Positions 3,901-36,888 of a DNA stretch of 64,000 nucleotides are shown in pieces. Position 1 is the first letter of the stretch, and the number at the start of each line of letters is the position of its first letter. Position numbers and translations under genes: made by a program. Source of the stretch: a virus; the IMG/VR virus record IMGVR_UViG_3300023235_000014; one strand, written 5' to 3'. The notes under the pieces were generated by a model. That model made no database searches. It had not been told where the DNA came from and saw only the letters and a program-made list of their open reading frames with translations.

Positions 3901-4034
3901 AAAGAAACAACACGAACGTTGACCGTGATAACAACAAGGTCAATGTTCGAATCGTCCTTGTACCAACCAGAGCAGTTGAGTTTATCGCTGTTGACTTCAT
4001 CATCACTCGCAGTGGAGTACAGTTCGCCAGCTAA
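954..4034 (+). CDS. Tail sheath protein, gp18-like (paralog A, 1026 aa)
   Basis: N-terminal 'GTPAGVIGGSERGPAFVP' and C-terminal 'PWFAPAGFNRASLDF' match the T4 gp18 sheath motifs ('GPAF', 'WMSPAGYNRG'). RBS AAAGGAAC 7 nt upstream of the ATG. Confidence 0.85.
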   Translation: MASQIFNFPGFFDREIDLSAREESPTGTPAGVIGGSERGPAFVPYTVGSFADYRTIFGDLNTRYAAPYAADKFLANRSALTFIRILNAGANETSTDIDTTRTQGTVKNAGFIISGAAEVPGNEAVAQGVVQFIVANHYVSGNEAYGLPMFTDNDSFATGSDGAWNGYANLVRGVIFCASGTRMQILSHDQYYSETSDDAATPSDTTRYFKIAISSSLGTSFGNDEGFDGVRIFTASLNPTEDNYFAKLLNTDPERFADERHLVYADYAVDAEIATLESGIDSVAIASGSASTSSTSGDSSLPFLNAFGRFDTRYTAPKSPWFISQPYGETEHDLFYIEAIDDGAYANSRIKVSILDIQKSANPKDKYGTFNLVVRDFFDTDVEPRILEQFSNMTLNPDSDNYIGKVIGDKKARFNFDAADVSDRRLLTTGKFANRSRNVRVVISDQVAKKAVPADAVPFGFRGVEVLNTNSALVDTTGSAATDRLYLRSTGTLDTHGRLLGAIVPPIPHRYKVTRGATDTDGSRLAGAPGTTEITDGRYYWGVKFTRNSNALNPNVVELENKLIKSMTKFAGISKLDMLVTGSQKDTFNNNKFTLARVALGNGALADITSSVNKHMKETVYFRNGRPDGFEYKIIDPMTDDSRITFATLYQKGATASDFNKFTNFTKFTTFLYGGFDGTNILDKNAATFNDRSTSAETRTSDGEIGNAAATFTSPGLASNVNGAGISNSTVASYRAASDIVTDAIASNVNIVATPGQRDPLVTDYVSDAVRDFGIAFYVMDIPLYDSDIERIWDDETSKYVDVEQTANSFELRALDNEYAGAYFPDVVIEDIVNRRRVTVPSTVGAIAALGFNDRIAYPWFAPAGFNRASLDFVTKTKVKIKQPERERLFAIHVNPITKFPGTAANVIFAQNTLEQAESALGSINVVRMLNELKRQIIDIGNRTIWEQITPTIYTELEKSFRNVLNTITSRAGIERYDVVVDERNNTNVDRDNNKVNVRIVLVPTRAVEFIAVDFIITRSGVQFAS

Positions 4035-5165: not shown

Positions 5166-8100
5166 ATGACTACCATCAATTTCAAAAGCGCAGGTGTATC
5201 TGCCCGTGTTATTAACCTGACTGGCCCAACCGCCGTTCAACCAGTCGGTATTCCAGCTGGCGTTATTGGAACATCAGTAAAGGGACCTGCGTTTGTACCA
5301 ACTACTGTTGCAACCACTCAGGACTTTACCGTGGTCTTTGGAGCGCCAGCTGACGGTGCTGTCAACGGACCATTGGCGGTAGGTGAGTGGCTTCGTAATC
5401 AACAGGCCGCAACCTTCCTGCGTGTTCTTGGTGTAGGCCAGGCTAGACGTCGAGAGACTTCGGGCGATAACCAAGGTCGAGTTGTTGGTGCGGGTTTTGT
5501 CGTTGGTGGCAGGCAGCCATCTACTGATGGCGCCTTGGTTGATAATGCTTACGCAAACACAGGTGGACCCGAAGGACGTCTTTACTTTCTGAATGCATTT
5601 ATGTCCGAGGCAAACAGCTCTGGGCTTCTTACTTCTGCTGGCCTTTCAAGTGACGGCGTTCCGCTTGTTCGTGCTGTCCTAATGGCAGCTTCTGGAGTAA
5701 TTCTTCGACTTTCCTCTTCGATAACTGGAGTTGCCTCGACCGCTCCTGCTGCATCATTAGTCTCAACTGAGGCTACCGTTACTGGTACCATGCTAGGTGC
5801 AATAAATTTAAATGGCGGTCGTCAAGAATTTGTCCTTTTCCTAAATGGTCACAAGGGCTCGGATGTACTATACCCTCGTGTTATCACGGCATCTCTTGAC
5901 ATCGAAGCACCAAACTACCTTGGCCGTGTGCTAAACACCGACCCTCTCCTTATGGAGAAGGCGGGCCACGTACTTTACGCAGATTGGTCTGTCCACTCCA
6001 ACCTTGCAGTTGTGACTTCTTCAAATGCAGTATCAACTTTTGCAAGTGGCGTAAATCCAAGCATCGCTGTTGGTGTTGAGCCAGCTATTTTCCTTGCGAC
6101 TGGCTCTAATGCCAGAAACTCGGGTTCGGTCGTGGCCCCAAGTTTCGAAAACTTTGAAGACCGCTTCAAGACGCCCAAGTCTCCCTGGATCGTGTCACAG
6201 AAGTTTGGTGGCAAGCCTAAGAACCTTATCCGTATCCATACACTGAGCGATGGTGCCTACGAGAATGAACAAATCAAGTGGTCTATCGAGAACTTGACTC
6301 CATCCGTTTCAGACGCACAGCCTTACGGTACATTTGACCTACTTGTTCGTCGTTTCGACGACACTGACAAAAGGCGTGAAGTAACCGAAGCCTGGAGGAA
6401 CCTGTCTCTTAACCCAAGCTCAGACAACTATGTTGCACGAGTTATTGGTGACACACACGTGTTCTACAACTTCGAATCTGCCGAGGGTTCACAGAAGATT
6501 ACAGAAAATGGCGAATACCCTAACCGTTCTAGCCTGATCCGTGTTGAAGTCTCTAACCTTGTAGACAACCAAGAGGTTGATGACTCAGCCCTTCCAATGG
6601 GTTTCCGTGGAATCCCCCACTTGGTTACTTCGGGTACAACAGCCCTAGCACCACTTACTAGCGCCACCGCTTTTGATGGTATCTTTAGCTCTAGCGCTGA
6701 GCCTGCATACAACGTAGTGCAGATGCCAGTTCAGTTCCGTGACAACCTAAACATAGGCTCGTCGGCAGCCCAACGACCAGACAAGGGATTGTACTGGGGC
6801 ATTCAGTTTGAGCGCAAACTTACTGTGGCTGAGTCTAACTCGACCACCGAACCCGAGCGAAGCATCGCCGCCTTTACACGTTACTTCCCAGACTTCCAAA
6901 CAGCCTGGCAGAGTGTGCTCGTTTCTAATAACGAGGGTGTGGCTGACGTTTCAGGTTCGGTTTTGGATGCTGACCGCTTCAACAACAATCTGTTTACTCT
7001 TGAGAACGTCAGGATTGTTCAGACAGCTGCTGGTTTGGCTGACACTGTGTCTCTTGTTAGTTGGAGCTACATGAGACAAGGGAATATCACCACCAACAGC
7101 ACCTGGAGACCGCTCGCTTCGTCCGACCTTACAGACGCATCTGTACGTCAGGTAGCTAAGTTTAGTGGCATTATTCAAGGTGGTTTCGACGGTGTGCGTA
7201 TCTTTGATGAAGATACCTCTGATATTACCAACAAGGCAATCACCGAAGAGATGAACAACTCAAATCGTGGTACATCTGACGGTCCATCTGTCAAGTCTTA
7301 CGCAACTGCTCTTGAGATTATGTCTGATGATACAGAAACTGACATTCAGCTTCTTGCTATCCCAGGCATCCGTCACCCAATCATTACAGATAACGCTACT
7401 CTCAAGACTGAAGACCGCTTTGATGCCATGTACCTCATGGACATTGAGGAGTATGACACGCTCAATGCTCCATTTACAGGTTCAAGTGAACAAGACTTGT
7501 CGGTTCGTTTCACCGCAAACAACCATAGTGCTCGTGGCCTGAACTCTTCATTCGCTGCTGCGTACTTCCCTGACCTCATCGTACGAGACGCATTCAACAA
7601 CACTATCCGTCAGGTTCCACCGTCGGTAGCTGTTCTCGGTGCATTTGCACTCAATGATTCCATTGGATTCCCATGGTACGCACCAGCAGGTTTCGCCCGT
7701 GGCGCCCTACAGACAACTGAAGAGGCTTTCATCCCGCTTAACCGTGACAACATGAATGCCTTGCAGGATGTCAAAGTCAACCCGCTTGTTTCCTTTGCAG
7801 GTTCAGAAGGTGTAGTTGTCTGGGGTCAGCGCACTCTCCTCGGCAAGGACTCAGCTCTTGAGCGTGTAAATGTTCGTAGACTGCTTATCAGCCTTCGTCG
7901 ACAAGTCCGCCAGGTCGCCCGTCGCTTCATCTTCGAGCCAGGCCGTGAAGAAACCCTTGCAAGGTTTTCACAGCTTGTAAATCCAATCATGAAGAGGGTC
8001 CAAGACCAGAAGGGTGTTGAGCGCTTCTTGGTGAGAATCGATACCACAACCACCACTCAAACGGACGTTGAAAACCGTACCATTCGTGGTCAGATTTTCC

Positions 8101-8180
8101 TTGTCCCAACCAAGACCCTTGAGTTCTTGTCCATTGATTTCGTTGTAACCAACCAGGGTAACTTCGTCACCAGCGTATAG
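5166..8180 (+). CDS. Tail sheath protein, gp18-like (paralog B, 1004 aa)
   Basis: 'GIPAGVIGTSVKGPAFVP' and 'PWYAPAGFARGALQ' match sheath motifs. Collinear similarity to paralog A throughout, e.g. 'FKTPKSPWIVSQ' vs 'YTAPKSPWFISQ'. RBS GGAGAG. Confidence 0.85.
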   Translation: MTTINFKSAGVSARVINLTGPTAVQPVGIPAGVIGTSVKGPAFVPTTVATTQDFTVVFGAPADGAVNGPLAVGEWLRNQQAATFLRVLGVGQARRRETSGDNQGRVVGAGFVVGGRQPSTDGALVDNAYANTGGPEGRLYFLNAFMSEANSSGLLTSAGLSSDGVPLVRAVLMAASGVILRLSSSITGVASTAPAASLVSTEATVTGTMLGAINLNGGRQEFVLFLNGHKGSDVLYPRVITASLDIEAPNYLGRVLNTDPLLMEKAGHVLYADWSVHSNLAVVTSSNAVSTFASGVNPSIAVGVEPAIFLATGSNARNSGSVVAPSFENFEDRFKTPKSPWIVSQKFGGKPKNLIRIHTLSDGAYENEQIKWSIENLTPSVSDAQPYGTFDLLVRRFDDTDKRREVTEAWRNLSLNPSSDNYVARVIGDTHVFYNFESAEGSQKITENGEYPNRSSLIRVEVSNLVDNQEVDDSALPMGFRGIPHLVTSGTTALAPLTSATAFDGIFSSSAEPAYNVVQMPVQFRDNLNIGSSAAQRPDKGLYWGIQFERKLTVAESNSTTEPERSIAAFTRYFPDFQTAWQSVLVSNNEGVADVSGSVLDADRFNNNLFTLENVRIVQTAAGLADTVSLVSWSYMRQGNITTNSTWRPLASSDLTDASVRQVAKFSGIIQGGFDGVRIFDEDTSDITNKAITEEMNNSNRGTSDGPSVKSYATALEIMSDDTETDIQLLAIPGIRHPIITDNATLKTEDRFDAMYLMDIEEYDTLNAPFTGSSEQDLSVRFTANNHSARGLNSSFAAAYFPDLIVRDAFNNTIRQVPPSVAVLGAFALNDSIGFPWYAPAGFARGALQTTEEAFIPLNRDNMNALQDVKVNPLVSFAGSEGVVVWGQRTLLGKDSALERVNVRRLLISLRRQVRQVARRFIFEPGREETLARFSQLVNPIMKRVQDQKGVERFLVRIDTTTTTQTDVENRTIRGQIFLVPTKTLEFLSIDFVVTNQGNFVTSV

Positions 8181-14188: not shown

Positions 14189-16111
14189 ATGAAGACTTTC
14201 ACACTGTCACAGCTCGCAGAGGGCGTAAAAAGACGTTCCCTTGGCGCAGACTCACCACGTCTGTCCAAGAAATGGAACGCCACAGGACTCCTAGAGGGCC
14301 TAAAGGGAATGAACCGAGATAACATGTCTCGTCTACTTGAGAACCAGGCAGCTGAGTTGCTCAAGGAGACAAACGCATTGTCCCTCGGAGGAGCTTCCCT
14401 AACCTCTAGCGGAAAAATCGCTGGTTTCACCAACGTCGCTTTCCCAATCGTACGCCGTGTATTCGCAGGCTTGATTGCAAATGAAGTTGTATCGGTTCAG
14501 CCAATGAGCCTACCAACTGGTTTGCTTTTCTACCTCGATTACACTTATGGTTCATCGGTTGGTGGAGACGCAGGTACATCAGCGAACCAGTTCTCAACCA
14601 CATCCGTGGTTAGCCCATCAACTTACACGAGTCAGGACTCCGTATACAACAACCCACGTGGTGTTGGCGTACGTTCAGGTTCTCTCGCAACTGGTGGCCA
14701 GTACGACCTTGCAGGTCATGGCTACTCGAAGGTGCACAAGCAGAGCCGTTGGCTCTCAGGTTCCGCAGCATCTGTCGGCTACTGGGCAACTGGTTCCGTA
14801 TGGACCGCAGGCGCAGCCGTAGCTACTTCCGCAGACTTCACAGGCTTCAATGCTCGTTACGCAATGTACGATGCAAACGTTGAACGTGATCTCGCAGATA
14901 ACCTTTTGGACTACTCGTTCGCATTCGTGCCAACATCTGAGTTCACTGGCAAAATCACTGGTACCGACCTTACCAACGTCAACCAAATCAGTATAACTGG
15001 TTTCGGTAGTGTTACCAACTCCGCAGTGGAGTGGGGCGAGAAGTACCAGGGTGGACGTGGCGTCCTCAACCTACGCAAGCTAACGCAGCGTGGTGATTGG
15101 GATGTTGCCAATGGTGTCTTTACACCAAGCCCACTCGGTGGTTCACACCTTATGTTCGTTGTGCGTCTTGGTAACGCAGGTACCCCACCAGCTCCAGATG
15201 GCACTGTGGGTAACGCAGTAACTGCTTCCGCAGCTATCGCTGACGCACTTTCGGTCAACACTGACGGTTCAACCCTTACCATCCCAAGCTTCGAGTCTGA
15301 CTTCGCAGTCGATTCTAGCCCACGAATCCCAGAGGTTGATATCCGAATCGAATCCACCAGCGTAACGGCTCAGACCCGTAAGCTGCGTGCTCGTTGGTCG
15401 CCAGAAATGGCTCAGGACCTTACGGCCTTCTACTCAATCGATGTAGAAGTCGAGCTTACGAACATTCTCTCTGAGATGATCACACTCGACATTGACCGTG
15501 AGATTTTGAACGACCTTCTCACACAGGCAGGTGCTGCTAACCTCTTCTGGAGCCGTGCTCCAGGTAAGATTGTGAACAAGTTCACAGGCGCAGAGGCTCT
15601 ACAGTCCAGCACCCTATCCCCAGGCCCAATGGCATTCGTAAACATCCAGGAGTGGTACCAGACTCTGCTTGAGACCATCACTGATGCTGCGAACACCATC
15701 CACCGTAAGACACTCCGTGGTTCAGGTAACTTCATGGTTACCAGCCCAGATGTCTGCACCATCCTTGAGCACCTAGTTGCATACAAGCCTTCCTACAGAG
15801 TAGACGCTGACGGACAGGTTCGTGACAACATGGTAATCGGCGCCGAGGCAGTTGGTACCCTTAACAACCGTTACACGGTTTACAAGGACCCTTACTTCCC
15901 AAGCAACAAGGTTCTAGTTGGCCTAAAGGGCAACACCTTCCTTGAATCAGGATACATCTACGCTCCGTACGTACCACTTATCCTTACTCCTGTCATCTAT
16001 GCACAGGAAGATTTCACGCCACGTAAGGGTGTCATGACTCGTTACGGCAAGAAGATGGTTAGAAATGACTTTTATGCAACCGTGACAGTTCTAGACATGG
16101 GTCTCATCTGA
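14189..16111 (+). CDS. Major capsid protein, T4 gp23-like, with an N-terminal propeptide
   Basis: 'FPIVRRVFAGLIANEVVSVQPMSLPTGLLFYLDYTYG' vs T4 'AVMGMVRRAIPNLIAFDICGVQPMNSPTGQVFALRAVYG'. 'TRKLRARWSPEMAQDL' vs 'SRQLKAAYSIELAQDL'. C-terminal 'YIYAPYVPL' vs 'GIYYAPYVAL'. RBS GAGGAG. Confidence 0.9.
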   Translation: MKTFTLSQLAEGVKRRSLGADSPRLSKKWNATGLLEGLKGMNRDNMSRLLENQAAELLKETNALSLGGASLTSSGKIAGFTNVAFPIVRRVFAGLIANEVVSVQPMSLPTGLLFYLDYTYGSSVGGDAGTSANQFSTTSVVSPSTYTSQDSVYNNPRGVGVRSGSLATGGQYDLAGHGYSKVHKQSRWLSGSAASVGYWATGSVWTAGAAVATSADFTGFNARYAMYDANVERDLADNLLDYSFAFVPTSEFTGKITGTDLTNVNQISITGFGSVTNSAVEWGEKYQGGRGVLNLRKLTQRGDWDVANGVFTPSPLGGSHLMFVVRLGNAGTPPAPDGTVGNAVTASAAIADALSVNTDGSTLTIPSFESDFAVDSSPRIPEVDIRIESTSVTAQTRKLRARWSPEMAQDLTAFYSIDVEVELTNILSEMITLDIDREILNDLLTQAGAANLFWSRAPGKIVNKFTGAEALQSSTLSPGPMAFVNIQEWYQTLLETITDAANTIHRKTLRGSGNFMVTSPDVCTILEHLVAYKPSYRVDADGQVRDNMVIGAEAVGTLNNRYTVYKDPYFPSNKVLVGLKGNTFLESGYIYAPYVPLILTPVIYAQEDFTPRKGVMTRYGKKMVRNDFYATVTVLDMGLI

Positions 16112-16310: not shown

Positions 16311-17768
16311 ATGCGCTGTCAAGTCTGCAATAAGGATTTTGAATCCAAGAGAAGGTTAGCGAGCCATCTACAAAAAAAGCATAGCATGGATTCATGTACG
16401 TACACATCAAAATATTTGTGTGAGAATTCCCGAACACCTGTTTGTGCCTTTGAGGACTGCAAACAAGAACCCAGATACGTTTCTTTTACGTTCAAAAGAT
16501 TTTGCAAGGAGCATTCCAAACATGCAATGAAAAGTGGGGGGCGCCGTGGGGGGCAAGCTCAGGCTTGGAATAAAGGGAAAACAAAATTCGACGACAAAAG
16601 AATACTCAAGCAAGCAATCTCAATGTTAGGAAACGGGAATCACTTTTATGGCCAACAACACTCTAACCAAACGATTGAAACACTAAAGATTAGTTCGAAA
16701 ATTACCCAGGGTGAATTCAAAGCCAGGCTAAAGGCTAGAGAGTCGGATTTCATCATCTCAACAAATTTTTCATACGAAGAATATGAATCTAGGCAATACC
16801 AAAAATTGCCAGTTGAGTGTACCAGGTGTCACCGCACCTCCTACAAAACGCTTCAGTCCCTAGAGCGTGGAACCCTTTGTAAGTTTTGCTACCCTTTCAC
16901 AGTCTCAAGAGGCGAACTAGAACTTGGCAATTACGTTGAGTCTAAAATTGACCATGACGTTGTTAGAAACGATCGGACTGTCATTGCACCTTATGAGCTG
17001 GATATTTATGTCCCTAAATTGCACTTGGCAATTGAATACCACGGAGTTTATTGGCATATGGACAAAGGCCAGCCTGGGTTTGACAAGAAGCTCCACTACA
17101 AGAAGCACCTGCACGCTAAAAACAAAGGAATCAAACTTCTTCAATTTTACTCTAATCAATGGGAGCAACAATCCGAGCTTGTAAAGTCAATGATTGATAA
17201 CCAACTGGGACTTAATGCGAAAAAGGTGGGAGCCAGGACCTTGCAAATAACAATGCTTGATTCGAAAGCAGCAAAAGCTTTTTTCACTAAAAATCATTTA
17301 CACGGATGGTGCAGAGCAAAAGCCACGTTTGCCCTAACTGACAAAGAAACAAACGAAGTACTTTCTGCGCTGTCGCTACGAAGCCCGATGCATAAGGTCT
17401 ACAAAGATTCTTTGGAAATTGCCAGGTTCGCTACTAGGATGAACACTACGGTAGTAGGAGGCTTTAGTAAACTACTGTCATGTGTCAAAAAGTATACTAA
17501 GAGTCAACAGCTCCATACTATCATCTCGTACGCAGACTTATTACATGGGACAGGCCGAGTTTACGATTTAGCCGGCTTTGACTATGTCAAACACACGGGT
17601 ATCAATTATTGGTACACAGACGGCGTTCAGCTCTTCAACCGTTTCAGGTATAAAGCCGAGGCAAACAAGAGTGAGAAGGAAGTTGCTAAAGCACAGAACG
17701 TCCAGCGTATATACGGATGTGGTAACTCACTTTACAAACTAGCTCTAAAGGTAGAAGACGATGCATGA
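16311..17768 (+). CDS. Homing-endonuclease-like protein: N-terminal C2H2 zinc finger(s), NUMOD-like segment, and a Vsr-like PD-(D/E)xK nuclease domain
   Basis: 'CQVCNKDFESKRRLASHLQKKH' (C2H2). 'YELDIYVPKLHLAIEYHGVYWH' resembles the Vsr 'PD...AIFVDGCFWH' catalytic motif. Confidence 0.5.
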   Translation: MRCQVCNKDFESKRRLASHLQKKHSMDSCTYTSKYLCENSRTPVCAFEDCKQEPRYVSFTFKRFCKEHSKHAMKSGGRRGGQAQAWNKGKTKFDDKRILKQAISMLGNGNHFYGQQHSNQTIETLKISSKITQGEFKARLKARESDFIISTNFSYEEYESRQYQKLPVECTRCHRTSYKTLQSLERGTLCKFCYPFTVSRGELELGNYVESKIDHDVVRNDRTVIAPYELDIYVPKLHLAIEYHGVYWHMDKGQPGFDKKLHYKKHLHAKNKGIKLLQFYSNQWEQQSELVKSMIDNQLGLNAKKVGARTLQITMLDSKAAKAFFTKNHLHGWCRAKATFALTDKETNEVLSALSLRSPMHKVYKDSLEIARFATRMNTTVVGGFSKLLSCVKKYTKSQQLHTIISYADLLHGTGRVYDLAGFDYVKHTGINYWYTDGVQLFNRFRYKAEANKSEKEVAKAQNVQRIYGCGNSLYKLALKVEDDA

Positions 17769-19806
17769 TGAAATTCTAGTCAACACCCCATTTAACAAAC
17801 ACGTATATCTGACGGGAGATAAGAAAGTTGTCTGCCGACTTTGTGAAATTCAGGCTGTCCTCTCCAACTCCAAACGATCAATTGGTAGTCACTTCGGATT
17901 TCACCACAAAGAAATTGTTGAATCCACTCGGAAAGTAATTGTGTTCACAGTTAAATGCTTGGAGTGTAAGGAGCTAGTGGCAAACTCCAACAACGTTCTT
18001 GGGAGACACGTTCGCAAAGAACATGGTATGTCTTTTGAAGATTACGAGATTAAATGGTTGTTTCAGGGCGTACGACCAAAGTGTTCAGCCTGTGAGCTGC
18101 CCCTCAAGAGGCGCAAAGGCGGCTTCCCAACCTTCTGCTCAATCAAATGTGGTGCTATCGGTATCAACAACCCAATGTGGGGCAAGAAAGGTGCAGACAG
18201 CCCAAACACCGGCAAAGTCCGCTCACAAGAGCATCGTGAGAATTATAGCAAGGCGGCCCATAAGCGGTACAAGGAGAATCCAGAGCTTATCAACCAGCGT
18301 CGCAAAGAAACTATCGCCAGGCTTGAACGGGGTGAGTTCAATCGCAGTGGAAGTTTTGTTACAACCAACCCAATTACTGGCAAGCAAGAACGTTTTGACA
18401 GCACCTGGGAACATCAGTTTGTCATACTCCATAGAGACAACTACAGCGATCTTACTAAGACACATAAGATCCGCATTCCCTACACGTCGACTTTAGATGG
18501 CCGTGAACATGTTTACATCCCTGACTTTGTTTCCGAAAACAAAAAAGAGGTTGTAGAAATTAAAGGGAGGTTCAAAGAAAAAACTGCGGACAAGATTGAT
18601 GCAGCGAAAGAGTGGTCGAAAGCAAACGGATATGTCTATCGTGTGTTCACTTGTGGCTCAAGCAAAACATTGTTTGAGGTTGATGTCTCGGGTATGCTTT
18701 ACGGAGATACAGGCGCAGTTCCATACGGCGGAACTAAAATGTTGCGCTGGCAAGACCGAAACCTCTCTTCAGCCTTAGTTGAGAAGATGCCCGTCGAAGA
18801 AAAAGAAGAGGTGGCCAAGAATGTGTTTGCCTTCTACAAAGAGAACGGCTTTCCTTATATCCTTCATGAAGAGCAAACCCTAAAAAAGGAATGGGCAAAA
18901 CTACAAAAAGAAACTCTTGTTCCCAAACAAGAAGAAGGGTTTACTTTTTTACCCAATAAGCAGACGGCTGGCAACAAGCTTACACAACATTTCAATTCCA
19001 GACAATTCTACACTGTGAAAGACAATGGTAGGAATAGCAAATCTATGATTGAAGCTTTCAGCGATGATGACATTTTGCTAAAAGTCATTAGAAACCGTTT
19101 GAATATTACCTATAAGGAAACCTTCAATATACATGGGGCAATGCTTAGACAGGGCTTCAGGTCCACTAGGATGGCTGCTGTGACCTCTACTTTCAACTGC
19201 CTTGTGGCCAAACACATCTACACAGAACTGACTCCAAACGATGGCATTGTATTTGATTTCTCAGCTGGCTTCGGTCACCGAATGCTTGGAGCACTCGCAA
19301 GTTCAAATAACCTGAAGTATGTTGCTTGTGATCCATGGACAGAGGTAGTGGAAAACAACAAGCGAATGGCAAAGTTCATTGGTGCAAAAGACCGAGCAAA
19401 GATTTGGAACGTCGGGTCAGAAGTGTGGGTCCCGCCCAAAGCTCTTTTGGGAACGGTAGACCTAGCCTTCTCCAGTCCTCCCTATTTCGACAAAGAAGTG
19501 TATGACAACGGGGAAAATGGTCAGGCATACGGGAATAGGACATTTGAGGAATTCACTAGTGAATGGTGGAAGCCGACTCTCAGAACCATTATAACCCTAT
19601 TGAAGCCCGAAGGAAAACTCGCAATCAACATGGTTGAGCCAATGATAGACGATTTGCTGAAGATTGCCCAGGAAATGGGGTTCAAAGAGTCACACAGATA
19701 CCATCTACAAATGAGTAGAAGTCATTTTGAAAAAGCTAAAAAGCTTGGTGATAGAGCCAAAGGCTCATTCAAGGCTGAGCCAATTATTGTTCTTCATAGG
19801 AGATAA
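17761..19806 (+). CDS. Fusion protein: N-terminal Zn-finger plus nuclease-like domain, and a C-terminal DNA (N6-adenine/N4-cytosine) methyltransferase
   Basis: 'CRLCEIQ...GSHFGFHHKE' (Zn finger). 'HVYIPDFVSENKKEVVEIKGRF' (PD-(D/E)xK-like). MTase motif I 'FDFSAGFGHRMLG' and motif IV 'SPPY'. Confidence 0.6.
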   Translation: MHDEILVNTPFNKHVYLTGDKKVVCRLCEIQAVLSNSKRSIGSHFGFHHKEIVESTRKVIVFTVKCLECKELVANSNNVLGRHVRKEHGMSFEDYEIKWLFQGVRPKCSACELPLKRRKGGFPTFCSIKCGAIGINNPMWGKKGADSPNTGKVRSQEHRENYSKAAHKRYKENPELINQRRKETIARLERGEFNRSGSFVTTNPITGKQERFDSTWEHQFVILHRDNYSDLTKTHKIRIPYTSTLDGREHVYIPDFVSENKKEVVEIKGRFKEKTADKIDAAKEWSKANGYVYRVFTCGSSKTLFEVDVSGMLYGDTGAVPYGGTKMLRWQDRNLSSALVEKMPVEEKEEVAKNVFAFYKENGFPYILHEEQTLKKEWAKLQKETLVPKQEEGFTFLPNKQTAGNKLTQHFNSRQFYTVKDNGRNSKSMIEAFSDDDILLKVIRNRLNITYKETFNIHGAMLRQGFRSTRMAAVTSTFNCLVAKHIYTELTPNDGIVFDFSAGFGHRMLGALASSNNLKYVACDPWTEVVENNKRMAKFIGAKDRAKIWNVGSEVWVPPKALLGTVDLAFSSPPYFDKEVYDNGENGQAYGNRTFEEFTSEWWKPTLRTIITLLKPEGKLAINMVEPMIDDLLKIAQEMGFKESHRYHLQMSRSHFEKAKKLGDRAKGSFKAEPIIVLHRR

Positions 19807-20106: not shown

Positions 20107-20177
20107 AACCAAAGCCTTGCCGAGAACTTTAAGCAAATACTGGACGTGCCTACTCCCATTGGCTGCTAATTAAGTGC

Positions 20178-29931: not shown

Positions 29932-30331
29932 GATCGTAAGTATGGGGTTCCCTTGTAGACCCCATTATGTTATAATTGGAGAATAGAGAAAGAAGACGAG
30001 GTTCCTGATGCCAGGCACGAAAAGCAAGCCGAATCCCGACAAAATCCTGAGCAAGGCGTTCACCCTCAAGGAAGAACTGGAAGATGCCCTTTGTATCGTT
30101 GTCAAGCTCATTGAGATGGCTAACGAGGTCAACATTGAAGAGTGGGGCCAAGAGGTCTGGGAAGAGGAACATCAAACCCTCGTTGGGCCCTGGAGGAGTT
30201 TCCTGGTGTTGATATCCACTTGCGTGGTCCTTAGGTTCACGGAGAACCTTAAGTTGTAACGATTTGCCGTTGATTAGGACGTTCCAGTGTGAGTTAGCCA
30301 TGTTTGTAATTAGGAACTTGCATAACGCCAA
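29903..30331 (-). CDS. DUF192 family protein (paralog of 27649..28008). Its C-terminal tail overlaps copy 2 of the promoter-like repeat
   Basis: 'HWNVLINGKSLQLKVLREPKDHASGYQHQETPPGPNEGLMFLF' aligns to 'HWHIVLNGEPLRVQVLRTPKEHAQGYQHHKMGPGPHSGMLFLW'. Confidence 0.5.
   Translation of the reverse strand: MALCKFLITNMANSHWNVLINGKSLQLKVLREPKDHASGYQHQETPPGPNEGLMFLFPDLLAPLFNVDLVSHLNELDNDTKGIFQFFLEGERLAQDFVGIRLAFRAWHQEPRLLSLFSNYNIMGSTREPHTYDHAFQNGADT
29936..29985 (+). repeat. Hairpin plus extended -10 element (copy 2): ATGGGGTtcccttgtagACCCCAT then TGTTATAATTGGAGAAT
   Basis: About 80% identical to 29376..29426. Perfect 7-bp inverted repeat. Confidence 0.4.
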
Positions 30332-31257
30332 ACAAAGCCACCAGCAGTTTTCCTGTTACCATGACAACATGCAGAAATGTTTGTCCTACTCGTGCCCGTG
30401 CGTTTTTCAGCTTCAATCGTACTTGAAAACGTGTTGATCGTTTCTCCTGTGTCGCAAGACACTTGTAACAGCGTCACATTTTTTCTTTTTTGAGAATAGA
30501 CATACGGTTGAATCTTACTTTTATTGACGTCATACGACCACATAAACCCACCAGCAGATTTACGATTTCCTAGTGCGCAACTTCTAATGCCAGAAATTTT
30601 TGTTTGTCTAGAAGCCTCTGAGGCGCTTTCGTAGGTTTTTATTACGTTGCCGTTTAAATCATACTGGGAAACTTTTTTGGCCAATTTACGGTTTGGAACT
30701 CCTTTAGAAGATAAACTCATTTTTCTTTTCGACTCTTCTGTGTGCTTTCTCCCGTACATGTGGTGGTCTTTCCCAATGCCCCACTGAGGATTGCCTTTGC
30801 CAGATTTGAAATGCAAGTGTGTCTGTTTCTTTTTTGCTTCAGATATCTTTTTGCAGGTTTCTTGTGAGACAACTTTACCCATGTGTGCTTGGCTCATTTT
30901 TCTCTTAGTGTCTTCTGAATGACTTCGGCCCAATGCACTTCCCGCTGTTGGGCATATGTTGTAGCACAACGTCTGATCGTCGTATGACTTGTCAAGATAT
31001 CCCTGTTCCACTAAAACCAAATTTGTCAATTTATCCACACGCTCAACAAGAACCGCACGAAGCACTGCTGTACCATGTTTGTTGACTACGTGTTGCAAGT
31101 ATTGGTTAGGGTGTTTGTTGCGCCTGAGCTTACTCAGATGATCGTTAAAGCGCTTTCGAATACACTTGGCGCTACCAATGTAGAACTTCCCATTCGCTAT
31201 GTTCTCAATGCGATAAATACCTCTGATTCCAAAAACTACTTTTGCCGGGTCATACAT
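30310..31257 (-). CDS. GIY-YIG homing endonuclease with NUMOD3-like repeats
   Basis: 'GIYRIENIANGKFYIGSAKCIRKRFNDH...VLVE'. Repeated 'HTEESKRKMS' basic helices. Confidence 0.8.
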   Translation of the reverse strand: MYDPAKVVFGIRGIYRIENIANGKFYIGSAKCIRKRFNDHLSKLRRNKHPNQYLQHVVNKHGTAVLRAVLVERVDKLTNLVLVEQGYLDKSYDDQTLCYNICPTAGSALGRSHSEDTKRKMSQAHMGKVVSQETCKKISEAKKKQTHLHFKSGKGNPQWGIGKDHHMYGRKHTEESKRKMSLSSKGVPNRKLAKKVSQYDLNGNVIKTYESASEASRQTKISGIRSCALGNRKSAGGFMWSYDVNKSKIQPYVYSQKRKNVTLLQVSCDTGETINTFSSTIEAEKRTGTSRTNISACCHGNRKTAGGFVWRYASS

Positions 31258-31354: not shown

Positions 31355-31846
31355 ATGGCAGATACACTCTCGGTAACAGATATGTTGCCAACTAAATTTG
31401 AACCGATTACCAAGCGACGCTTCCTGCTCGCTATCGAGGGCATTGACTCATTCATCGTTAAGAGTGCTGCTCGTCCCACCTACAACACCGAAGAAGTCAC
31501 CATCAACTGGATCAACTCAACTCGCTACGTTGCTGGCAAGACTACCTTCAACACCATCTCGGTGACGCTGCACGATCCAATCGCACCAGCTGGCGCACAG
31601 CAGGTCATGGAATGGATTCGTCTTTGCTTCGAGTCCGTCTCAGGTCGTGGCGGTTACGCTGACTTCTACAAGCGTGACATCCAACTCAAGATGCTAGACC
31701 CCGTTGGTACAGTCGTTCAACTCTGGGACATCAAAGGTGCCTTCATCACAGAAGCTAACTTCAATGATGTCTCCTATGACTCAACCGCTGACCTCGCAGA
31801 AATCGCATTGACTATAAGATTCGATAACGCAGTTTTACAATATTGA
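31355..31846 (+). CDS. Tail tube protein, T4 gp19-like
   Basis: 'KSAARPTYNTEEVTINWINSTRYVAGKTTFNTISVTLHDP' vs gp19 'KATALPAGIVEKIPVGFMNRKINVAGDRTFDDWTVTVMND'. Confidence 0.6.
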   Translation: MADTLSVTDMLPTKFEPITKRRFLLAIEGIDSFIVKSAARPTYNTEEVTINWINSTRYVAGKTTFNTISVTLHDPIAPAGAQQVMEWIRLCFESVSGRGGYADFYKRDIQLKMLDPVGTVVQLWDIKGAFITEANFNDVSYDSTADLAEIALTIRFDNAVLQY

Positions 31847-31943
31847 TCAAGTTGCTACCATTTGGTTGCTGTCCAACTAACGCTTTATCAAAATACATCC
31901 TTAGACATCCGAGCTATACTCTAATAGAAAGAGAGTGTGGCTC

Positions 31944-32792
31944 ATGTCATTTAAGTGCCCAAATTGTGTCAAGCAGTACGATACCTTGCAGTCCTTAATT
32001 CGTCATTGGACGAGAGGCCACAAGGAAAAATCAGAGACCCTTTACCAAATCTTGAATGGGCTTGATGGTCCACAAGTATGTGCTTGCGGCTGCGGGGAGG
32101 AAACCAAGTTCCTTGATGCAGGCCGTGGTTACTCTGAATATAGATGGGGTCATAAAGCCAAGGTAAAAGGCCAAAACAATTTTCAGAAGAATGGCGGCTT
32201 CAAAAAATCACTTGAAACTCGTCGCAAGATGTTTGTCGAAGGCGAACTCCAAATTTGGAATAAAGGCGAAACCAAAGAAACACATTCATCTGTAGCCCAA
32301 TATGGAAAAAATGGCTCTAAAACCATCAAAGGAAATCCCAAAGAATTGAAACGTCGTAGTGAACGTTTACACAAAGGTAGACTTAATGGAACAGTGCGTA
32401 GTCTATATGGTCCAGAGCATTCACAGTGGAATGGTGGTACATCTACATTGCGAGGCCTGTTGATAGGAAGCACAAAGCTTTACCATGCATGGAAGTTTCC
32501 TAAACTATCTGCTGCCAATTTTACCTGTGAGGAATGCGACGCAAAAAATGTTTCATTGCATGTTCACCATGACACTACAACAATGAGTGAAATTCTTAAA
32601 ATTGTAGCAGACAACAACAAACTAAGTGAAATGTTTAACAAACCAACTTCTGCTGTTCCTAAAAAGGTGTTGGCAATAAAGTCTAAGTTAATCGATGAAG
32701 TGACAGACTACCATGTTCAGAACAACGTTTCTGGCGTTGTCTTATGCAAGGACTGTCACGGCAAAGAGCACGGCAATCTTAATTTCAAGTAA
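31944..32792 (+). CDS. HNH homing endonuclease with N-terminal C2H2 zinc finger and NUMOD-like repeats
   Basis: 'FKCPNCVKQYDTLQSLIRHWTRGH' (C2H2). 'LHVHHD...VVLCKDCHGKEHGNL' (HNH). The ATG at 31944 is preceded by AGAAAGAGAG. Confidence 0.7.
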   Translation: MSFKCPNCVKQYDTLQSLIRHWTRGHKEKSETLYQILNGLDGPQVCACGCGEETKFLDAGRGYSEYRWGHKAKVKGQNNFQKNGGFKKSLETRRKMFVEGELQIWNKGETKETHSSVAQYGKNGSKTIKGNPKELKRRSERLHKGRLNGTVRSLYGPEHSQWNGGTSTLRGLLIGSTKLYHAWKFPKLSAANFTCEECDAKNVSLHVHHDTTTMSEILKIVADNNKLSEMFNKPTSAVPKKVLAIKSKLIDEVTDYHVQNNVSGVVLCKDCHGKEHGNLNFK

Positions 32793-32963
32793 CGCCCTAT
32801 TGCAGCGGTTTGTAATACAAGCTAATATTTACGATTATGTCCACCATCACACAAGAACGAAACATTGTTAAGGGCTTACTTCTAAAGGCGATCAAAACAT
32901 TGTCAAAAGTCTCAATGGCTCAACTTTGCTCAATTACAAATAACTTCGCTATTTAAGCATGCT

Positions 32964-34337
32964 ATGGTAGGTCTGGGCCCATTTTATCACGGAACCAATT
33001 CGAAGTTCGACTTTAAGAAAGATTTCGATTTCGCAAAGGGTGTTGGTGCCATTTACATGTTCGCCAACAGGAACATCGAAGGCGGGGCCGCTTACGCACG
33101 TTACGTGGGCAAGGATTTTGGGCAAGACAATGCCTATCTCTACGAGGTATTTCTCAAGCCATCAACGAAGATAGTTGACCTTACTCAGTGGAATGAGGAA
33201 ACACAGGAGTTGGCAGCCCTTCTGGACTCTGATGAGGAACTCGGTCGCCTGGCTGGTGGTGGTATTGGGGAACATCGCTATCAAAACAAAGAGCGTTGGA
33301 AAGCATTTGCCCACTGCACTGATGAGTTTGACATGCCTTGCGTGTTTGACGTGTTAGATTACAACGAAGGACTATTTGAAGCCTTGCGTGCGCTGGGTGT
33401 CGACGGGCTATACTTTGTTGATGGATTAGACGAAATCAAAAAAGACATTCCAGATTCCAACGTTCCTGCTGTAGCTTTATTCAGTACGGATGTCATTGAC
33501 AGAGTTGAGGTTTATGAAGTTGAGACGTATGGAGACAGCATCAAGAAGATCTCTGAGGCATCGAATCTTCATAGACTAGTTGAGTCCGTACTTGCAGAAG
33601 TTTTTGATGAGTTTGTTCTTGAGCAGGATTTTTTCACTAAAGAACAGCAGGAGATCAAATTTAAGATTCACGAGCAAAGTCCTAAGGAAAACGACCAGCT
33701 AGGTAGAGGTTGGGTTGTTCATTTGATTGAGGCGTTTGTTGATGGTGAAGTAGTTGGGTCTATCAAGATAAGTTATATTCCAGAAGAGAGATTCTTCAAT
33801 GAGTATCCAAGCATCCTTCATTACATTGACAAGATTGACGGAAGCATTCTTCCGAATGTCGATCCCAGTTTGCCTGGTCCAGATAATTTCAAGAAGCTTT
33901 CACTGAAAAATCAGATTCTTGTACTTGATAGTCTGTCGTCGGGTGGATATAGGTATTATGGCTCACGTGAATCCGAAAAACTTGATACGATGTCTGACGA
34001 TGAGTTAAAGGACTTGCGTAAAAATTTCCTCAAGGCAATAACGTCCAAATATCGTGACAGGTTTAAAGATTTCAAGGAATTTCATGTTGACAAGCCTCTC
34101 GTTGATTACATCCATGTTGAAGAAGATTACCAAAGAAAGCGCATAGGAGCTGCTTTATACGAGAAGGCTGCACGTTGGCTCGGTGAAACCAAGGGATTGA
34201 AGTTGTACGCTTCAGGAATTCAATCAACGCAAGCCAAAGGGGCTTGGAAGTGGCTTCAGCAAAATAAGGGTGCCAACATTGGCTCTGAACAATACGAAAA
34301 TCGGGACCGAATTTTCCTAACTTTCGTAGGGAACTAA
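32964..34337 (+). CDS. 'YHGT'-family (H-Y-E ART-like) domain fused to a C-terminal GNAT acetyltransferase domain
   Basis: 'FYHGTNSKFDFKKDFDFAKGVGAIYMFAN...AYLYEVFL'. C-terminal 'VDYIHVEEDYQRKRIGAALYEKAARWL' is GNAT motif A. Confidence 0.4.
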   Translation: MVGLGPFYHGTNSKFDFKKDFDFAKGVGAIYMFANRNIEGGAAYARYVGKDFGQDNAYLYEVFLKPSTKIVDLTQWNEETQELAALLDSDEELGRLAGGGIGEHRYQNKERWKAFAHCTDEFDMPCVFDVLDYNEGLFEALRALGVDGLYFVDGLDEIKKDIPDSNVPAVALFSTDVIDRVEVYEVETYGDSIKKISEASNLHRLVESVLAEVFDEFVLEQDFFTKEQQEIKFKIHEQSPKENDQLGRGWVVHLIEAFVDGEVVGSIKISYIPEERFFNEYPSILHYIDKIDGSILPNVDPSLPGPDNFKKLSLKNQILVLDSLSSGGYRYYGSRESEKLDTMSDDELKDLRKNFLKAITSKYRDRFKDFKEFHVDKPLVDYIHVEEDYQRKRIGAALYEKAARWLGETKGLKLYASGIQSTQAKGAWKWLQQNKGANIGSEQYENRDRIFLTFVGN

Positions 34338-34342
34338 AATAC

Positions 34343-34837
34343 ATGAGTATTGAATTAGACATAGAGATTGGTGACATTGTCCTAACGGGCAAGTTTAAAA
34401 ACAAGCGAACGACAGTCAAATCCATTGGGAAAGACGAGCTTGGGCAACCAACTATCAACGGGAAGCCGCTACTTAAACTTCGTATTGAGAAGCTTCTACC
34501 GAAAGAAAAGCAGAGCAAGGAAACAAGAGGGCAAATGAAAGAGTTTAGCAGTAAGAGATTCAAGGAATTGGCAGGATTAATAACTGAGAGCAAATATGCT
34601 ATTGGTCCAGCGAACAATTCTTCCAGGTGGTTTAAAGGCGAGATGCAGCAAGTCGCAGCTGAAAGGGTTGCAGATGCTGTTCGTGAGTTGCTTGAAAGCC
34701 TTGAAGACGCCTTTGAGGATGGTGTTCTTGGGCGGTCAGATGCAGATTCACTGAAGAAGTATTTATCTCAGACAACTATTCAAATTGATATGATTGACAA
34801 CATGATTGATGCTGTAGCCGAAGAGCAGGGCTTCTAA
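34343..34837 (+). CDS. Hypothetical protein with an internal type-B motif (aa 69-82 'SKRFKELAGLITE') after a 68-aa N-terminal module
   Basis: Motif seen directly. A possible internal start at the 'MKEFSSKRF' ATG. Confidence 0.4.
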   Translation: MSIELDIEIGDIVLTGKFKNKRTTVKSIGKDELGQPTINGKPLLKLRIEKLLPKEKQSKETRGQMKEFSSKRFKELAGLITESKYAIGPANNSSRWFKGEMQQVAAERVADAVRELLESLEDAFEDGVLGRSDADSLKKYLSQTTIQIDMIDNMIDAVAEEQGF

Positions 34838-34848
34838 ACCATTAAGCT

Positions 34849-35598
34849 ATGTCCAACCTCACTAAATTGATTCAATCGATACTCACGGAAGTGCTAAAGG
34901 AACTTGCTCCAGAGGCTCCAGAGGATGCACCATTCGGGCAGTACCTCTTTGCACCTGACCGTAAGGACTTAGCAGGCGAGGAGAAAAAAGAATCCAACAC
35001 GGATGCTGAGATGCATTTTAGAGACGCCTTATTCGACCACTATCTAGGCGACTCTTATTTGCTTGGCACACTCGCCCAAAAAGTGAAAGCCATGGTTGAC
35101 AAGGGTTGGTACACCAAAATCCTTGCAGCACCCGAGACGACTGTTTATCGATGGATCTCGGATGTAAGCATGGAGGCCGCCGCCAACATGCTAAAGACGT
35201 CTGTGGAAGACCTAGAAGAGTCAGCTGGGCGAGCGACAAAGTATGGGCCTGGGGTGATGGTACCAGGAGGTATTATTGGTGCCGATTCTAAAATCCATTC
35301 ATGGACGACGAAGCTAGACGAAGAGTGGATTTTGGCCGACTTGCAGCCGCCGCCATTGCAGCCAGGTCAAACTGCTATGATTCTTGTGGCGAGGACGTCT
35401 AGGAGGAACTTCTTCATCAACCCAAAGGGCATCGCAGACGTTGAGAGAATGCCAAGGTATGCGTACTATCAGGATGAGGTCATCTCCCATGGTCCGATTG
35501 AATTTGAAACAGCTTGTGTTCTAAGCAACAGTAAGCACAGCAAAGAGAGAATCAAAGGCAACGACGCTCTCTACCAGTTGATAGAATCGATGGAATAG
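34849..35598 (+). CDS. Putative R-S-E ART-like protein ('APxDAPFG' family member 2)
   Basis: N-terminal 'LIQSILTEVLKELAPEAPEDAPFGQYLFAP' parallels the 28038 gene. Candidate R ('TVYRWIS'), S-x-T ('HSWTTK') and ExE ('IEFETACVL'). Confidence 0.35.
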   Translation: MSNLTKLIQSILTEVLKELAPEAPEDAPFGQYLFAPDRKDLAGEEKKESNTDAEMHFRDALFDHYLGDSYLLGTLAQKVKAMVDKGWYTKILAAPETTVYRWISDVSMEAAANMLKTSVEDLEESAGRATKYGPGVMVPGGIIGADSKIHSWTTKLDEEWILADLQPPPLQPGQTAMILVARTSRRNFFINPKGIADVERMPRYAYYQDEVISHGPIEFETACVLSNSKHSKERIKGNDALYQLIESME

Positions 35599-35687
35599 CT
35601 GCTACACTGTGACTAGTCCTCGGTCTGTGGGTATTATCTCTACTGTGTCCTGGTTGAAACTCATGCAGTCCTCAAAGGCCAAATTAG

Positions 35688-35780
35688 TGAAGCTGTGGCC
35701 GAACATCATGTTGCAAATAAGGTTTCAGGCAAAGTGTTGTGTGTGAAGTGTCACGATAAAGAACATCACCACCTCAAGGT
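35688..35780 (+). pseudogene. Remnant 3' end of an HNH endonuclease gene: a duplicate of the end of the 31944..32792 gene
   Basis: Encodes '...EHHVANKVSGKVLCVKCHDKEHHHLKV' vs 'DYHVQNNVSGVVLCKDCHGKEHGNLNFK'. The DNA similarity continues through 'atatttacgactatg' to the next start codon. Confidence 0.6.
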
Positions 35781-35807
35781 TTGCAGTACAAGCCCATATT
35801 TACGACT

Positions 35808-36233
35808 ATGACTGGCTTTACAAGCAAACGATTCAAAGAACTTGCAGGTTTACTCACTGAAGCTGATGCACACGAAGAGTCAATGCCAGAAAAGATCACT
35901 CTCTATCACGGGACCACTCCTGAGAGTGCTGAAAGTTTGATGAGCAACGGCTGGGAACCTGGGAGTGGATACACAGGTGGCCAAATGGGGCAGACACGAT
36001 ATTTGTACCTCACCTCGTTCCCAGAGAACGCATCTTGGTATGCTGAAGAGAAGGGTTCTAGCACGGTGTTGGCTGTTGAAGTAAGCAAGTCAGATTTGAT
36101 TGTTGACCCAGAGGATGGTGTTGGTGATACTTTGGATGATGAGTGGATAAACATGACTCAGTATAAGATGCCAGCAAACTTTGCCTTGAAGAGACCATTG
36201 CCTGGCTCAGCTTTCACGTTGCACAACTCATGA
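35808..36233 (+). CDS. 'YHGT'-family ART-like protein with a type-B N-terminal propeptide
   Basis: 'MTGFTSKRFKELAGLLTEADAHEE' then 'ITLYHGTTPESAESLMSNGW', 'RYLYLTSFPENASWYA', 'LAVEV'. Confidence 0.45.
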   Translation: MTGFTSKRFKELAGLLTEADAHEESMPEKITLYHGTTPESAESLMSNGWEPGSGYTGGQMGQTRYLYLTSFPENASWYAEEKGSSTVLAVEVSKSDLIVDPEDGVGDTLDDEWINMTQYKMPANFALKRPLPGSAFTLHNS

Positions 36234-36296
36234 GTCATTCGGTTCCTACTTTGCAATCAAGCCTGGCTATTCGTCAGGCTTTTGCTATTTAAGTCT

Positions 36297-36888
36297 ATGA
36301 AGTTATACCACGGTACTTCAAGTAAACGACTTGAAGATTTCGAAAACTCCTGAAGAAGCCTATCAAGAAAGCTATGATGAGTGGTTTGAGAAAATCCGAA
36401 TGAGTTATGAAGCCAGCGGCAAGGATTTTTCGGAAGAGGAAGTTTCTGAAATAGCAGGCTCGTTGGCAGTAGGAAGTCGTAAGCACCAAGAAGGTGCCTT
36501 AGGTAAGCCACGTAAGTTAGCTGAAAAGCGTTTTGAAAGTATGGCTGACCGTGCACGAAGCAATTCAATGTTCAAAACCATGACACAGTCAGATGGTGAA
36601 GTGATCTACCGTATCACCAGGGAGCTGTCTGATACTTCTAGAGCTTGGTCAATTTTGTTGTCAAAAATGGGGTATGATGGCGTGTACGATGATGGAACTG
36701 CCAGCATCTATTACGGTCAAGAAGCCGATCAGCTCGTACTGTTTAGAACACGTCCTATTCAAGAGCTGGGCACCTTTTCTAGCGCTACAAGGCCCAAGAA
36801 CAAGAGCCTGGAAAAAAACCTGGGCAGGGTCTTGCGTGCGGAGGCAAGTAGTAAGTCAAAATACAGTCTTGCCAAGCTTTTCGGCTAA
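36297..36888 (+). pseudogene. 'YHGT'-family gene with a +1 frameshift after codon 17 at the 'gaaaact' A-run; the downstream part carries a 'GYDGVYDDG' motif
   Basis: 'MKLYHGTSSKRLEDFENS*'. Removing one A gives a continuous '...EDFETPEEAYQESYDEW...' The ORF track's 36331 ORF is the continuation. Confidence 0.45.

Follow-up and report, generated by a model that had tools for sequence, protein, structure and literature searches.

The 64,000-nucleotide (64-kb) stretch of IMG/VR virus record IMGVR_UViG_3300023235_000014, hereafter the window, comes from a large phage and contains five genes whose products carry the short motif [LVF]YHG[TS]. Are these proteins related to each other, are they enzymes, and where would they act? 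A first-pass annotation had read them as one paralogous family of ADP-ribosyltransferases (ARTs) of the H-Y-E type. We conclude, with a probability of roughly 60%, that the YHG[TS] genes encode very divergent His-type ARTs (the H-Y-E/D clade of diphtheria toxin, PARP, Tpt1 and ART-PolyVal), which would be packaged in the phage head, injected, and act as NAD+-dependent effectors with a fast turnover.

Kinship of the five YHG[TS] genes

All five motifs lie on the + strand, each at most 45 codons from the start of its open reading frame (ORF). Three are found in long ORFs: M1 (FYHGT at 32985, ORF 32964-34337, 457 amino acids (aa)), M2 (VYHGT at 24224, ORF 24098-25051, 317 aa) and M3 (LYHGT at 35904, ORF 35808-36233, 141 aa). 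The two others are found in short ones, namely M4 (LYHGT at 36306, in a 19-codon ORF at 36297-36353 followed by a +1-frame ORF at 36331-36888) and M5 (LYHGS at 20193, in a 35-codon ORF at 20178-20282, then in the -1 frame to 20848). Among the long ORF fragments of the window (25,843 residues), YHG[TS] was seen 3 times, against 0.145 expected from the residue composition, and this number was reached in 1 out of 2000 within-ORF shuffles. The count is restricted to long ORFs, and the M4 and M5 sites come in addition. Given this approximately 20-fold enrichment, the sharing of YHG[TS] by these five ORFs, already pointed out by the first-pass annotation, is a real observation.

Pairwise BLASTP comparisons among the five members gave nothing significant, and for this reason we moved to profile comparison; the kinship of the members becomes visible only when profiles or folds are compared. 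The M2 and M3 families were aligned by hhalign over a region spanning YHGT, the strand-2 motif, the next helix and strand 3 (probability 95.9%, E=5e-9). Once its frame was reconstructed, M5 matched the M1-family profile over 118 columns (hhalign 94%, E=1.3e-7; hmmsearch E=8.6e-5). The link between M1 and M2 was weaker, in an identical register (58%, E=1e-4), and M1 versus M3 gave 31%. These profile alignments show that M2 is homologous to M3, and the frameshifted M5 to M1. The profiles divide the genes into two sub-groups of a single superfamily, M1+M5 and M2+M3, and leave M4 as a remnant; the initial description of one tight five-member paralogous family was too strong.

Could YHG[TS] then be a chance or convergent short motif shared by five unrelated loci? 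The lack of significant pairwise BLASTP matches would fit, as would the absence in M4 of any significant profile match past the first ~15 residues. The ~20-fold enrichment, the significant and in-register links between profiles, and the same fold in two independently modelled members make this extremely unlikely: the proposal is largely refuted for M1, M2, M3 and M5, and possible for the ORF at 36331-36888.

The hits that define the M2 and M3 families are all unnamed and metagenomic, with 42 homologues for M3 and 50 for M2. M1 is rarer: one relative was found in a word-indexed search of 5.8 billion proteins, and HMMER, run in full against 1.84 billion cluster representatives, gave 7 hits, M1 itself included. 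Its only close homologue, P0001, is 74% identical. M2 and M3 had no tblastn match in 50,697 GenBank phage records, searches of PDB sequences with the M1 and M2 family profiles gave no meaningful match, and an NCBIfam search added nothing. Public sources label the three families only as “hypothetical”. These three unannotated families, all below Pfam thresholds and made of solo or two-domain proteins, are new.

ART fold and active-site residues

Structures were predicted with AlphaFold2 for M3 (alignment of 42 sequences, predicted local distance difference test (pLDDT) 85.3) and for the N-terminal domain of M1 (7 sequences, pLDDT 83.9, predicted template modelling score (pTM) 0.81). Both models have a split beta-sheet ART fold, and their structural matches were to ART structures only. 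In a Foldseek comparison of M1 with predicted viral structures (BFVD), the top matches were an “ART-PolyVal-like domain-containing protein” and a “PolyVal ADP-Ribosyltransferase” (E=1e-5), and next came large polyvalent proteins and proteins annotated as N-acetyltransferase or ParB/Sulfiredoxin. As modelled, M1 and M3 thus have the ART fold. A non-ART fold, which this check could have returned, was not seen, and the fold assignment therefore stands.

Matches to Pfam were weak and all within the His-type ART clan. The gathering thresholds are 31.2 bits for ART-PolyVal (PF18760) and 26.7 bits for the PARP catalytic domain (PF00644). Against the first, M1 scored 21.2 bits (E=5.5e-4), P0001 16.1 bits and P0096 15.8 bits; 29 of the 48 M2-family members matched it weakly (best E=5.4e-4), and M2 itself did not. 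In the M3 family, 19 out of 42 members matched PARP, again below threshold (13.1 bits for M3, best family member E=3.3e-4), and a few matched ART-PolyVal (best E=2.8e-4), Arr-ms, exotoxin A or diphtheria toxin. No match to the ADPrib_exo_Tox or Alt-type Pfam models was obtained. Together, the models, the viral neighbours and these weak matches support the placement of the proteins in the His-type clade that was first proposed.

The M3 profile also matched Tpt1 among PDB sequences (E=8e-4, aligned over LYHGT...YVHLS). M3 and its relatives might then be Tpt1/KptA-like RNA 2'-phosphotransferases, involved in RNA repair with a phage RNA ligase. We consider this very unlikely: the match is limited to the NAD+-binding lobe (residues 86-142 of Tpt1 chains of ~180 aa), and the NCBIfam score was 12.8 bits for a cut-off of 231. 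M3, with ~110 residues, is half the size of Tpt1/KptA, and the Tpt1 assignment was rejected because M3 lacks the N-terminal RNA-binding lobe, where most of the R-H-R-R catalytic tetrad resides.

One of the closest known systems is ART-PolyVal (PF18760; PMC5512222), which was the best Pfam match for M1 and the M2 family and provided the best BFVD structural neighbours for M1. It shares with the proteins described here the YHG[TS] of strand 1, the G-x-Y-F of strand 2, a phage origin and the presence of multiple copies, as well as predicted virion delivery, often beside GNAT and ParB-like domains. Differences are that all scores here are below the gathering threshold, that M1 has a ~65-residue helical insert, and that the strand-5 Asp, by sequence register, appears unconserved in the M1 and M3 families. 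Polyvalent proteins are large multidomain proteins, for which Iyer et al. 2017 (PMC5512222) give 2-15 domains, whereas the proteins here (141-457 aa) have one or two: M1, with an ART-like domain and a GNAT domain in 457 aa, is at the minimum of this range, M3 is a single domain and M2 has one recognisable domain. The R-S-E clade of T4 Alt, ModA and ModB has an Arg on strand 1, Ser-x-Ser on strand 2 and Glu-x-Glu on strand 5, and here a His is found, then a Tyr or Phe. There is no significant sequence similarity to Arr (the rifampin ART), AcrIF11 (an anti-CRISPR ART), DarT or the RES-domain NAD+ toxins, and no antitoxin or partner-gene context. The YHG[TS] proteins are distant relatives of the His-clade ARTs of ART-PolyVal and Tox-ART-HYD2 type, and would act alike, rather than Alt-type ARTs, PARPs or Tpt1.

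In M1, the N-terminal ART-like domain (32964..33530, +; aa 1 to ~189) contains H9 in FYHGT on strand 1 and Y31 in GAIYMF on strand 2, followed by a helical insert (aa 78-143) and a DGLDE motif (aa 153-157). The GNAT acetyltransferase module that the first-pass annotation had seen fused to it is indeed present in the C-terminal part (33594..34337, +; aa ~211-457): Pfam Acetyltransf_1 matched with 28.8 bits, above the cut-off of 20.7 (E=1.6e-6), at aa 380-416, a segment that includes KRIGAA and covers the acetyl-CoA-binding motif A region. It is only via this module that M1 was matched by tblastn in GenBank phage records, with 41% and 33% identity over aa 211-454 to two uncultured phages of ~485 kb. 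In one of the two (LR745208.1, 1034-3350), the M1-type GNAT module stands behind an HExxH zincin-like region and not behind an ART; MSYIPVERFKRYYP is duplicated there over an ORF boundary, possibly as an artefact of assembly or duplication. In P0001, the GNAT is replaced by a C-terminal region in which a ParB-like DGVHRLW motif was read by eye. ART, GNAT, ParB and metallopeptidase are recurrent domains of polyvalent proteins (PMC5512222).

M2 counts 317 aa from a GTG, and an alternative ATG at 24125 gives a protein starting with MKTNDNLESLLEA. Its ART-like domain (aa ~38-170) is followed by a helical C-terminal region, and the conserved residues are H44, R66, F77, E95, H104 and E150, the latter in EPQ. 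The start of M2 overlaps by 22 nt a small ORF (23772..24119, +) with a ParB/Srx-like DGHHR motif, for which Pfam matches were only weak (ParBc_2, E=0.035; DUF1015, E=0.002). The start of M3 is fixed by an identical database protein, P0002, and its ART-like core (35862..36233, +; ~110 aa) follows a leader. Invariant or near-invariant residues in the M3 family are LYHGT (H34), Y67, D100, P101, E102, D103, G104 and E112. In another phage, a GNAT gene overlaps an M3 homologue by 4 nt.

The H-G-[ST] of strand 1 and the aromatic residue of strand 2 hold NAD+ in characterised ARTs. Here H-G-[ST] is invariant within each of the three families, its His being present in every sequence (7/7 for M1, 48/48 for M2, 42/42 for M3), and the strand-2 aromatic is invariant as Y31 in the M1 family and as F77 in the M2 family, with Phe for Tyr, and conserved at 90% or more as Y67 in the M3 family. 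These two elements of the H-Y-E triad proposed at first are thus conserved. The third fared differently: with strand positions taken from the DSSP output of the models, the Glu that had been named (in YLYEV, VLAVEV and ILELKV) belongs to strand 3. Only the M2 family keeps it almost without exception; the M1 family has E, T or S there, and the M3 family varies. This strand-3 Glu does not correspond to the catalytic one of the H-Y-E scheme. Likewise, of the second and third motifs said to be shared by all members, the Glu of the third is conserved in one of the three families, and neither motif is convincing in M4.

Which residue would then be the catalytic acid? The canonical position, which opens strand 5, was placed solely from the sequence register and the secondary structure of the models. 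The M2 family has an invariant Glu, that of EPQ (E150). Two results at this position count against an enzymatic reading of the other families: M1 has an Ala, replaced by K, E or T in its homologues, and M3 has no acid (consensus LPGKxAL). M1 and M3 therefore appear to lack the canonical strand-5 acid, and could be pseudo-enzymes. Other acids are invariant or nearly so, namely D72 and D153-G-x-x-E157 in M1, and D100-P-E102-D103-G in M3. Candidates for the third catalytic residue are D72 and E157 in M1, D100, E102 and D103 in M3, and E150 in M2. Some ARTs are active without the Glu (Tpt1, Arr with an Asp, and the H-Y-I/L PARPs), which makes the predicted ART activity plausible.

Taken further, the apparent lack of this acid could mean that the proteins are ART-fold pseudo-enzymes or binders, in which the half that binds NAD+ or ADP-ribose is kept and no ADP-ribose is transferred; they might be packaged with a structural or internal role, act as decoys, or soak up defence signals derived from NAD+. 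We hold this to be unlikely. H-G-[ST], the strand-2 aromatic and the acidic clusters (DPEDG, DGLDE, EPQ) are conserved among distant homologues, which suggests selection on an active site, and the active ARTs without the Glu just cited argue in the same direction.

Leaders and delivery in the virion

M3 starts with a leader or propeptide, MTGFTSKRFKELAGLLTE (35808..35861, +), which ends in LLTE, an L-x-E sequence. That this gene carries a leader was a claim of the first-pass annotation that holds well: no fewer than 7 further ORFs of the window open with its K/R-R-[WF]-x-x-LAG-[IL] motif (25576, 25946, 42869, 43587, 43970, 49986 on the - strand, and ~21710), in the fuller form M..(K/R)(K/R)[WFL]Q.LAG[IL](L/I)(T/N/K)E. 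The leader M..(K/R)(K/R)[WFL]Q.LAG looks like a T4-type capsid targeting or cleavage signal. A second class of leader, MK.(T/N)K.QL..(M/L)I(R/K)EAV(R).QL.E, is found at 8232, 10132, 10860, 28038, 34849, 48388 and 49137; two of these ORFs, 28038-29234 and 34849-35598, are paralogous beyond the leader, with APEDAPFG.YLF in common.

In T4, a 10-residue capsid targeting sequence sends unrelated internal proteins into the prohead core, and is cut off by the prohead protease (PMC3012670, PMC9026906). T4 Alt and the internal proteins IPI-III resemble the situation described here in several respects: a gp23-type capsid, small and diverse proteins in variable arrays, a shared short N-terminal leader ending in hydrophobic-x-Glu, which is the case for M3, and an ART that would be injected cargo. 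Differences are the leader sequences, and the number of genes carrying a leader, far larger here, where they are known from sequence alone.

Leaders also accompany the relatives of M1 and M3. Homologues of the M1 family have a MKLLFENWRKYLKE-type leader. The MTGFTSKRFKELAGLLTE-type motif is missing from most M3 homologues; about 14 of the 42 have a different leader of 9-10 aa ending in I-V/I-E (MRQFMQIVE, MREFINIIE, MRRYINIIE), and the rest have none. On two unrelated metagenomic phage contigs, L020 and L021, this other leader, with the consensus M(M)R(R/Q/E)(F/Y)(I/M)(N/Q)I(V)E(N/S)A, opens 13 out of 31 adjacent genes (L020, 5001-12846) and 16 out of 27 (L021, 380-13844), and the arrays include several YHG[TS] ART-like paralogues and a GNAT gene. 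These leader arrays are far larger than the known T4 internal-protein loci.

The window itself is rich in virion genes. It encodes a gp23-type major capsid protein (14189-16111; Pfam Gp23, E=1.6e-79), tail-sheath proteins (954-4034 and 5166-8180), a gp19-like tail tube protein (31355-31846) and a baseplate J-like protein. The gp23 homologue has an N-terminal propeptide with LLE, LLEN and ELLKE motifs, a layout which we take to be that of the T4 gp23 propeptide. Its nearest relatives, at 37-46% identity, are in an uncultured 484-kb phage, Flavobacterium phages and a Microcystis phage, and the phage is a distant member of the T4-like assemblage.

By analogy with T4, the leaders are strong circumstantial evidence for directed packaging. 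The proteins would be made alongside virion genes, and those tagged with a leader would be drawn into the prohead core by this propeptide, in the manner of Alt and the T4 internal proteins; the leader would then be cut off after L-x-E by the prohead protease. Injected with the DNA, the proteins would consume NAD+ of the host and, at an early stage of infection, ADP-ribosylate one of its macromolecules, perhaps for host takeover or to block a defence system, and M1 would couple ADP-ribosylation to acetylation. Targeting would thus rely on a short cleavable leader, and not, as for ART-PolyVal, on fusion to MuF, metallopeptidase or portal-associated modules.

Several points weigh against such a delivery. 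M1 has no leader in this phage, and that of M2 (MKTNDNLESLLEA, from the ATG) is only suggestive. No prohead protease was recognised in the window, where the ORFs upstream of the capsid gene were searched for one of gp21 type with Pfam and PHROGs, nor was the T4 late promoter TATAAATA present in the window. In other phages, M3 homologues are surrounded mostly by unannotated genes rather than by recognisable head genes. Packaging, cleavage and injection are steps that we infer from T4.

These points could mean that the proteins are active enzymes used inside the infected cell, like ModA and ModB of T4, and not virion cargo; the shared leaders would then have a different role, for instance as a signal for translation, assembly or localisation. 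The missing leader of M1 and the lack of an identified protease or late promoter in the window favour this, and so does the occurrence of the leader motif at an internal position (34553, in ORF 34343-34837) and at a C-terminus (21647, in ORF 20936-21685). Opposed to it are the properties of the leaders, which are short, N-terminal, end in hydrophobic-x-Glu, and are common to dozens of unrelated small proteins in gene arrays. Shared leaders in arrays are the pattern of T4 internal proteins (PMC9026906), and the window is full of virion genes. A purely intracellular use seems to us rather improbable, and head packaging is the reading we retain.

Head packaging would not be a surprise for this clade. 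According to Iyer et al. 2017 (PMC5512222), H-Y-D ARTs are the commonest protein-modifying domains of virion-delivered polyvalent proteins, typically with one GNAT family beside them, and phage ARTs have been argued to be often packaged in the head (Iyer et al. 2022, PMC9503650). The first-pass annotation had taken H-Y-E-type ARTs to be unusual as virion cargo, which was its main reason for interest; this reason fails, because head-packaged His-clade ARTs of phages had already been predicted in these studies.

Decay of the gene family, genomic surroundings and significance

Two members, M4 and M5, are frameshifted, as had been noticed at first. The 5' part of M5 (20178..20282, +) reads MSIRLYHGSPNKFESFTQRDWVAFDGATVQSLFG then stops, and its 3' part in the -1 frame (20252..20848, +) reads LTPDRSFAAINAGPRGWIYEV ... 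GYDSF .... Restoring one base near GGC-TGA gives an unbroken match to the M1 family. The 5' remnant of M4 (36297..36353, +) reads MKLYHGTSSKRLEDFENS before its stop, and the ORF that follows in the +1 frame (36331..36888, +) has only a weak likeness to the M1 family in a GYDGVY...LVLFRTRPIQ stretch (hhalign 2.4%, E=0.019). The likeness of M4 to the M1 family is confined to this stretch and to the first ~15 residues. The ORF at 36331-36888 had no Pfam, PHROG or NCBIfam match and no relatives in scans of viral or metagenome contigs, and no convincing continuation of an ART domain was found 3' of M4 in any frame.

M4 would need a +1 shift and M5 a -1 shift. The DNA flanking the frameshift is identical, base for base, in 6 assemblies for M4 and in 4 for M5, from different samples; the frameshifts are therefore not assembly errors. 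Programmed frameshifting was considered and rejected: no X_XXY_YYZ slippery site for M5 was found by eye in the 30-nt overlap (20251-20281), and M4 lacks a convincing ART continuation. No intact orthologue was found for M5 in viral contigs, nor for M4 in viral or metagenome contigs. M5 is most simply a recent pseudogene with a one-base frameshift, and the best reading of M4 is that of a 5' remnant fused to a different ORF. A sixth, degenerate copy was also considered at 20780-21250 (ATHGVHYSDFKKWG...RGVYFY, an in-frame TAA at 20846, then GYDGIVDYDG in ORF 20936-21685), and was discarded as it had no support from the family hidden Markov models or from Pfam.

The upstream sequences offer another view of M4. 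In a different phage (L016), a hairpin similar to the one upstream of M4, together with CTATTTAAG and the first codons, is found at the 5' end of an M1-like gene, which is itself truncated after ~60 residues. The conserved intergenic cassette, TTGCAAYCAAGCCTGGCTATTCG..GGCTTTTGCTATTTAAG, consists of this hairpin and an A/T-rich element, and lies directly upstream of both M4 (36248-36296) and the truncated gene (~1960-2010 of L016). The element GCTATTTAAG is located 3 nt upstream of the ATG of M4 (36284..36293, +) and recurs at 32948-32957 before M1, and GCTAATTAAG is found at 20165-20174 before M5; M1 and M5 have in common GCTA[TA]TTAAG just 5' of the ATG. Counted over the window, the GCTATTTAAG decamer shows no enrichment (5 occurrences against 3.2 expected); what distinguishes it is its place directly before three starts (M1, M4 and M5) and the fact that it is conserved in L016. 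Two start codons, at 32837 and 35808, overlap with a separate element, ATATTTACGAYTATG. With a pseudogene (M5), a remnant (M4) and a truncated M1-like gene in a related phage, the YHG[TS] family is diversifying and decaying fast.

An identical gene copy is present on a 285-kb contig, and megablast with 20 kb of the window gave no matches. Reassignment of a stop codon was rejected, as many ORFs of 600-1100 codons stay open in the standard code. Homing-endonuclease-like or zinc-finger/HNH-like genes are located at 4076-5068, 16311-17768, 17761-19806, 22109-22882, 30310-31257 (-) and 31935-32792, with GIY-YIG domains at 4076-5068 and 30310-31257 (-) and a Mom-like domain at 16311-17768; the Cys-rich HNH-like ORFs are interspersed with structural and effector genes, which fits a highly plastic region. 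On the - strand, 45392-47512 encodes a 706-aa protein matching Pfam Volactin, an archaeal actin homologue (E=7e-59), split by an intein with Hint and LAGLIDADG domains; to our knowledge, an actin-like protein encoded by a phage is unusual. The 912-aa product of 38184-40922 (-) combines a Major Vault Protein shoulder domain (E=6.7e-24) with a vault repeat and an SPFH/Band 7 signal.

Conflicts between phages and their hosts are fought to a large extent with ADP-ribosylation, and T4 Alt is the textbook injected ART. That His-type ARTs are delivered by virions was already predicted by comparative genomics, and the YHG[TS] families extend this known theme rather than form a new system. What is new is modest: three unannotated families, deployed as solo proteins with T4-style leaders, with a visible birth-and-death dynamics, and the apparent loss of the canonical catalytic acid in two of them. 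Because M1 and M3 seem to lack the strand-5 acid, they might catalyse an NAD+ reaction of a non-canonical kind or act on an unusual target, be it nucleic acid, a small molecule or, as for AcrIF11, a defence protein; in M1 this would be coupled to acetylation. More broadly, and we regard this whole picture as doubtful, many uncultivated large phages might package an arsenal of small leader-tagged effectors, at least a dozen per 16-kb stretch in two phages, of which diversifying His-type ARTs with such properties would be a staple. Our results suggest a second delivery route for the His-type clade, as small solo proteins with cleavable T4-style leaders, next to the giant polyvalent proteins. If this is true, injected effectors of uncultivated phages could be recognised by a simple rule based on leader sequences, and the variants lacking the acid would be candidate carriers of a new ART chemistry or of anti-defence functions.

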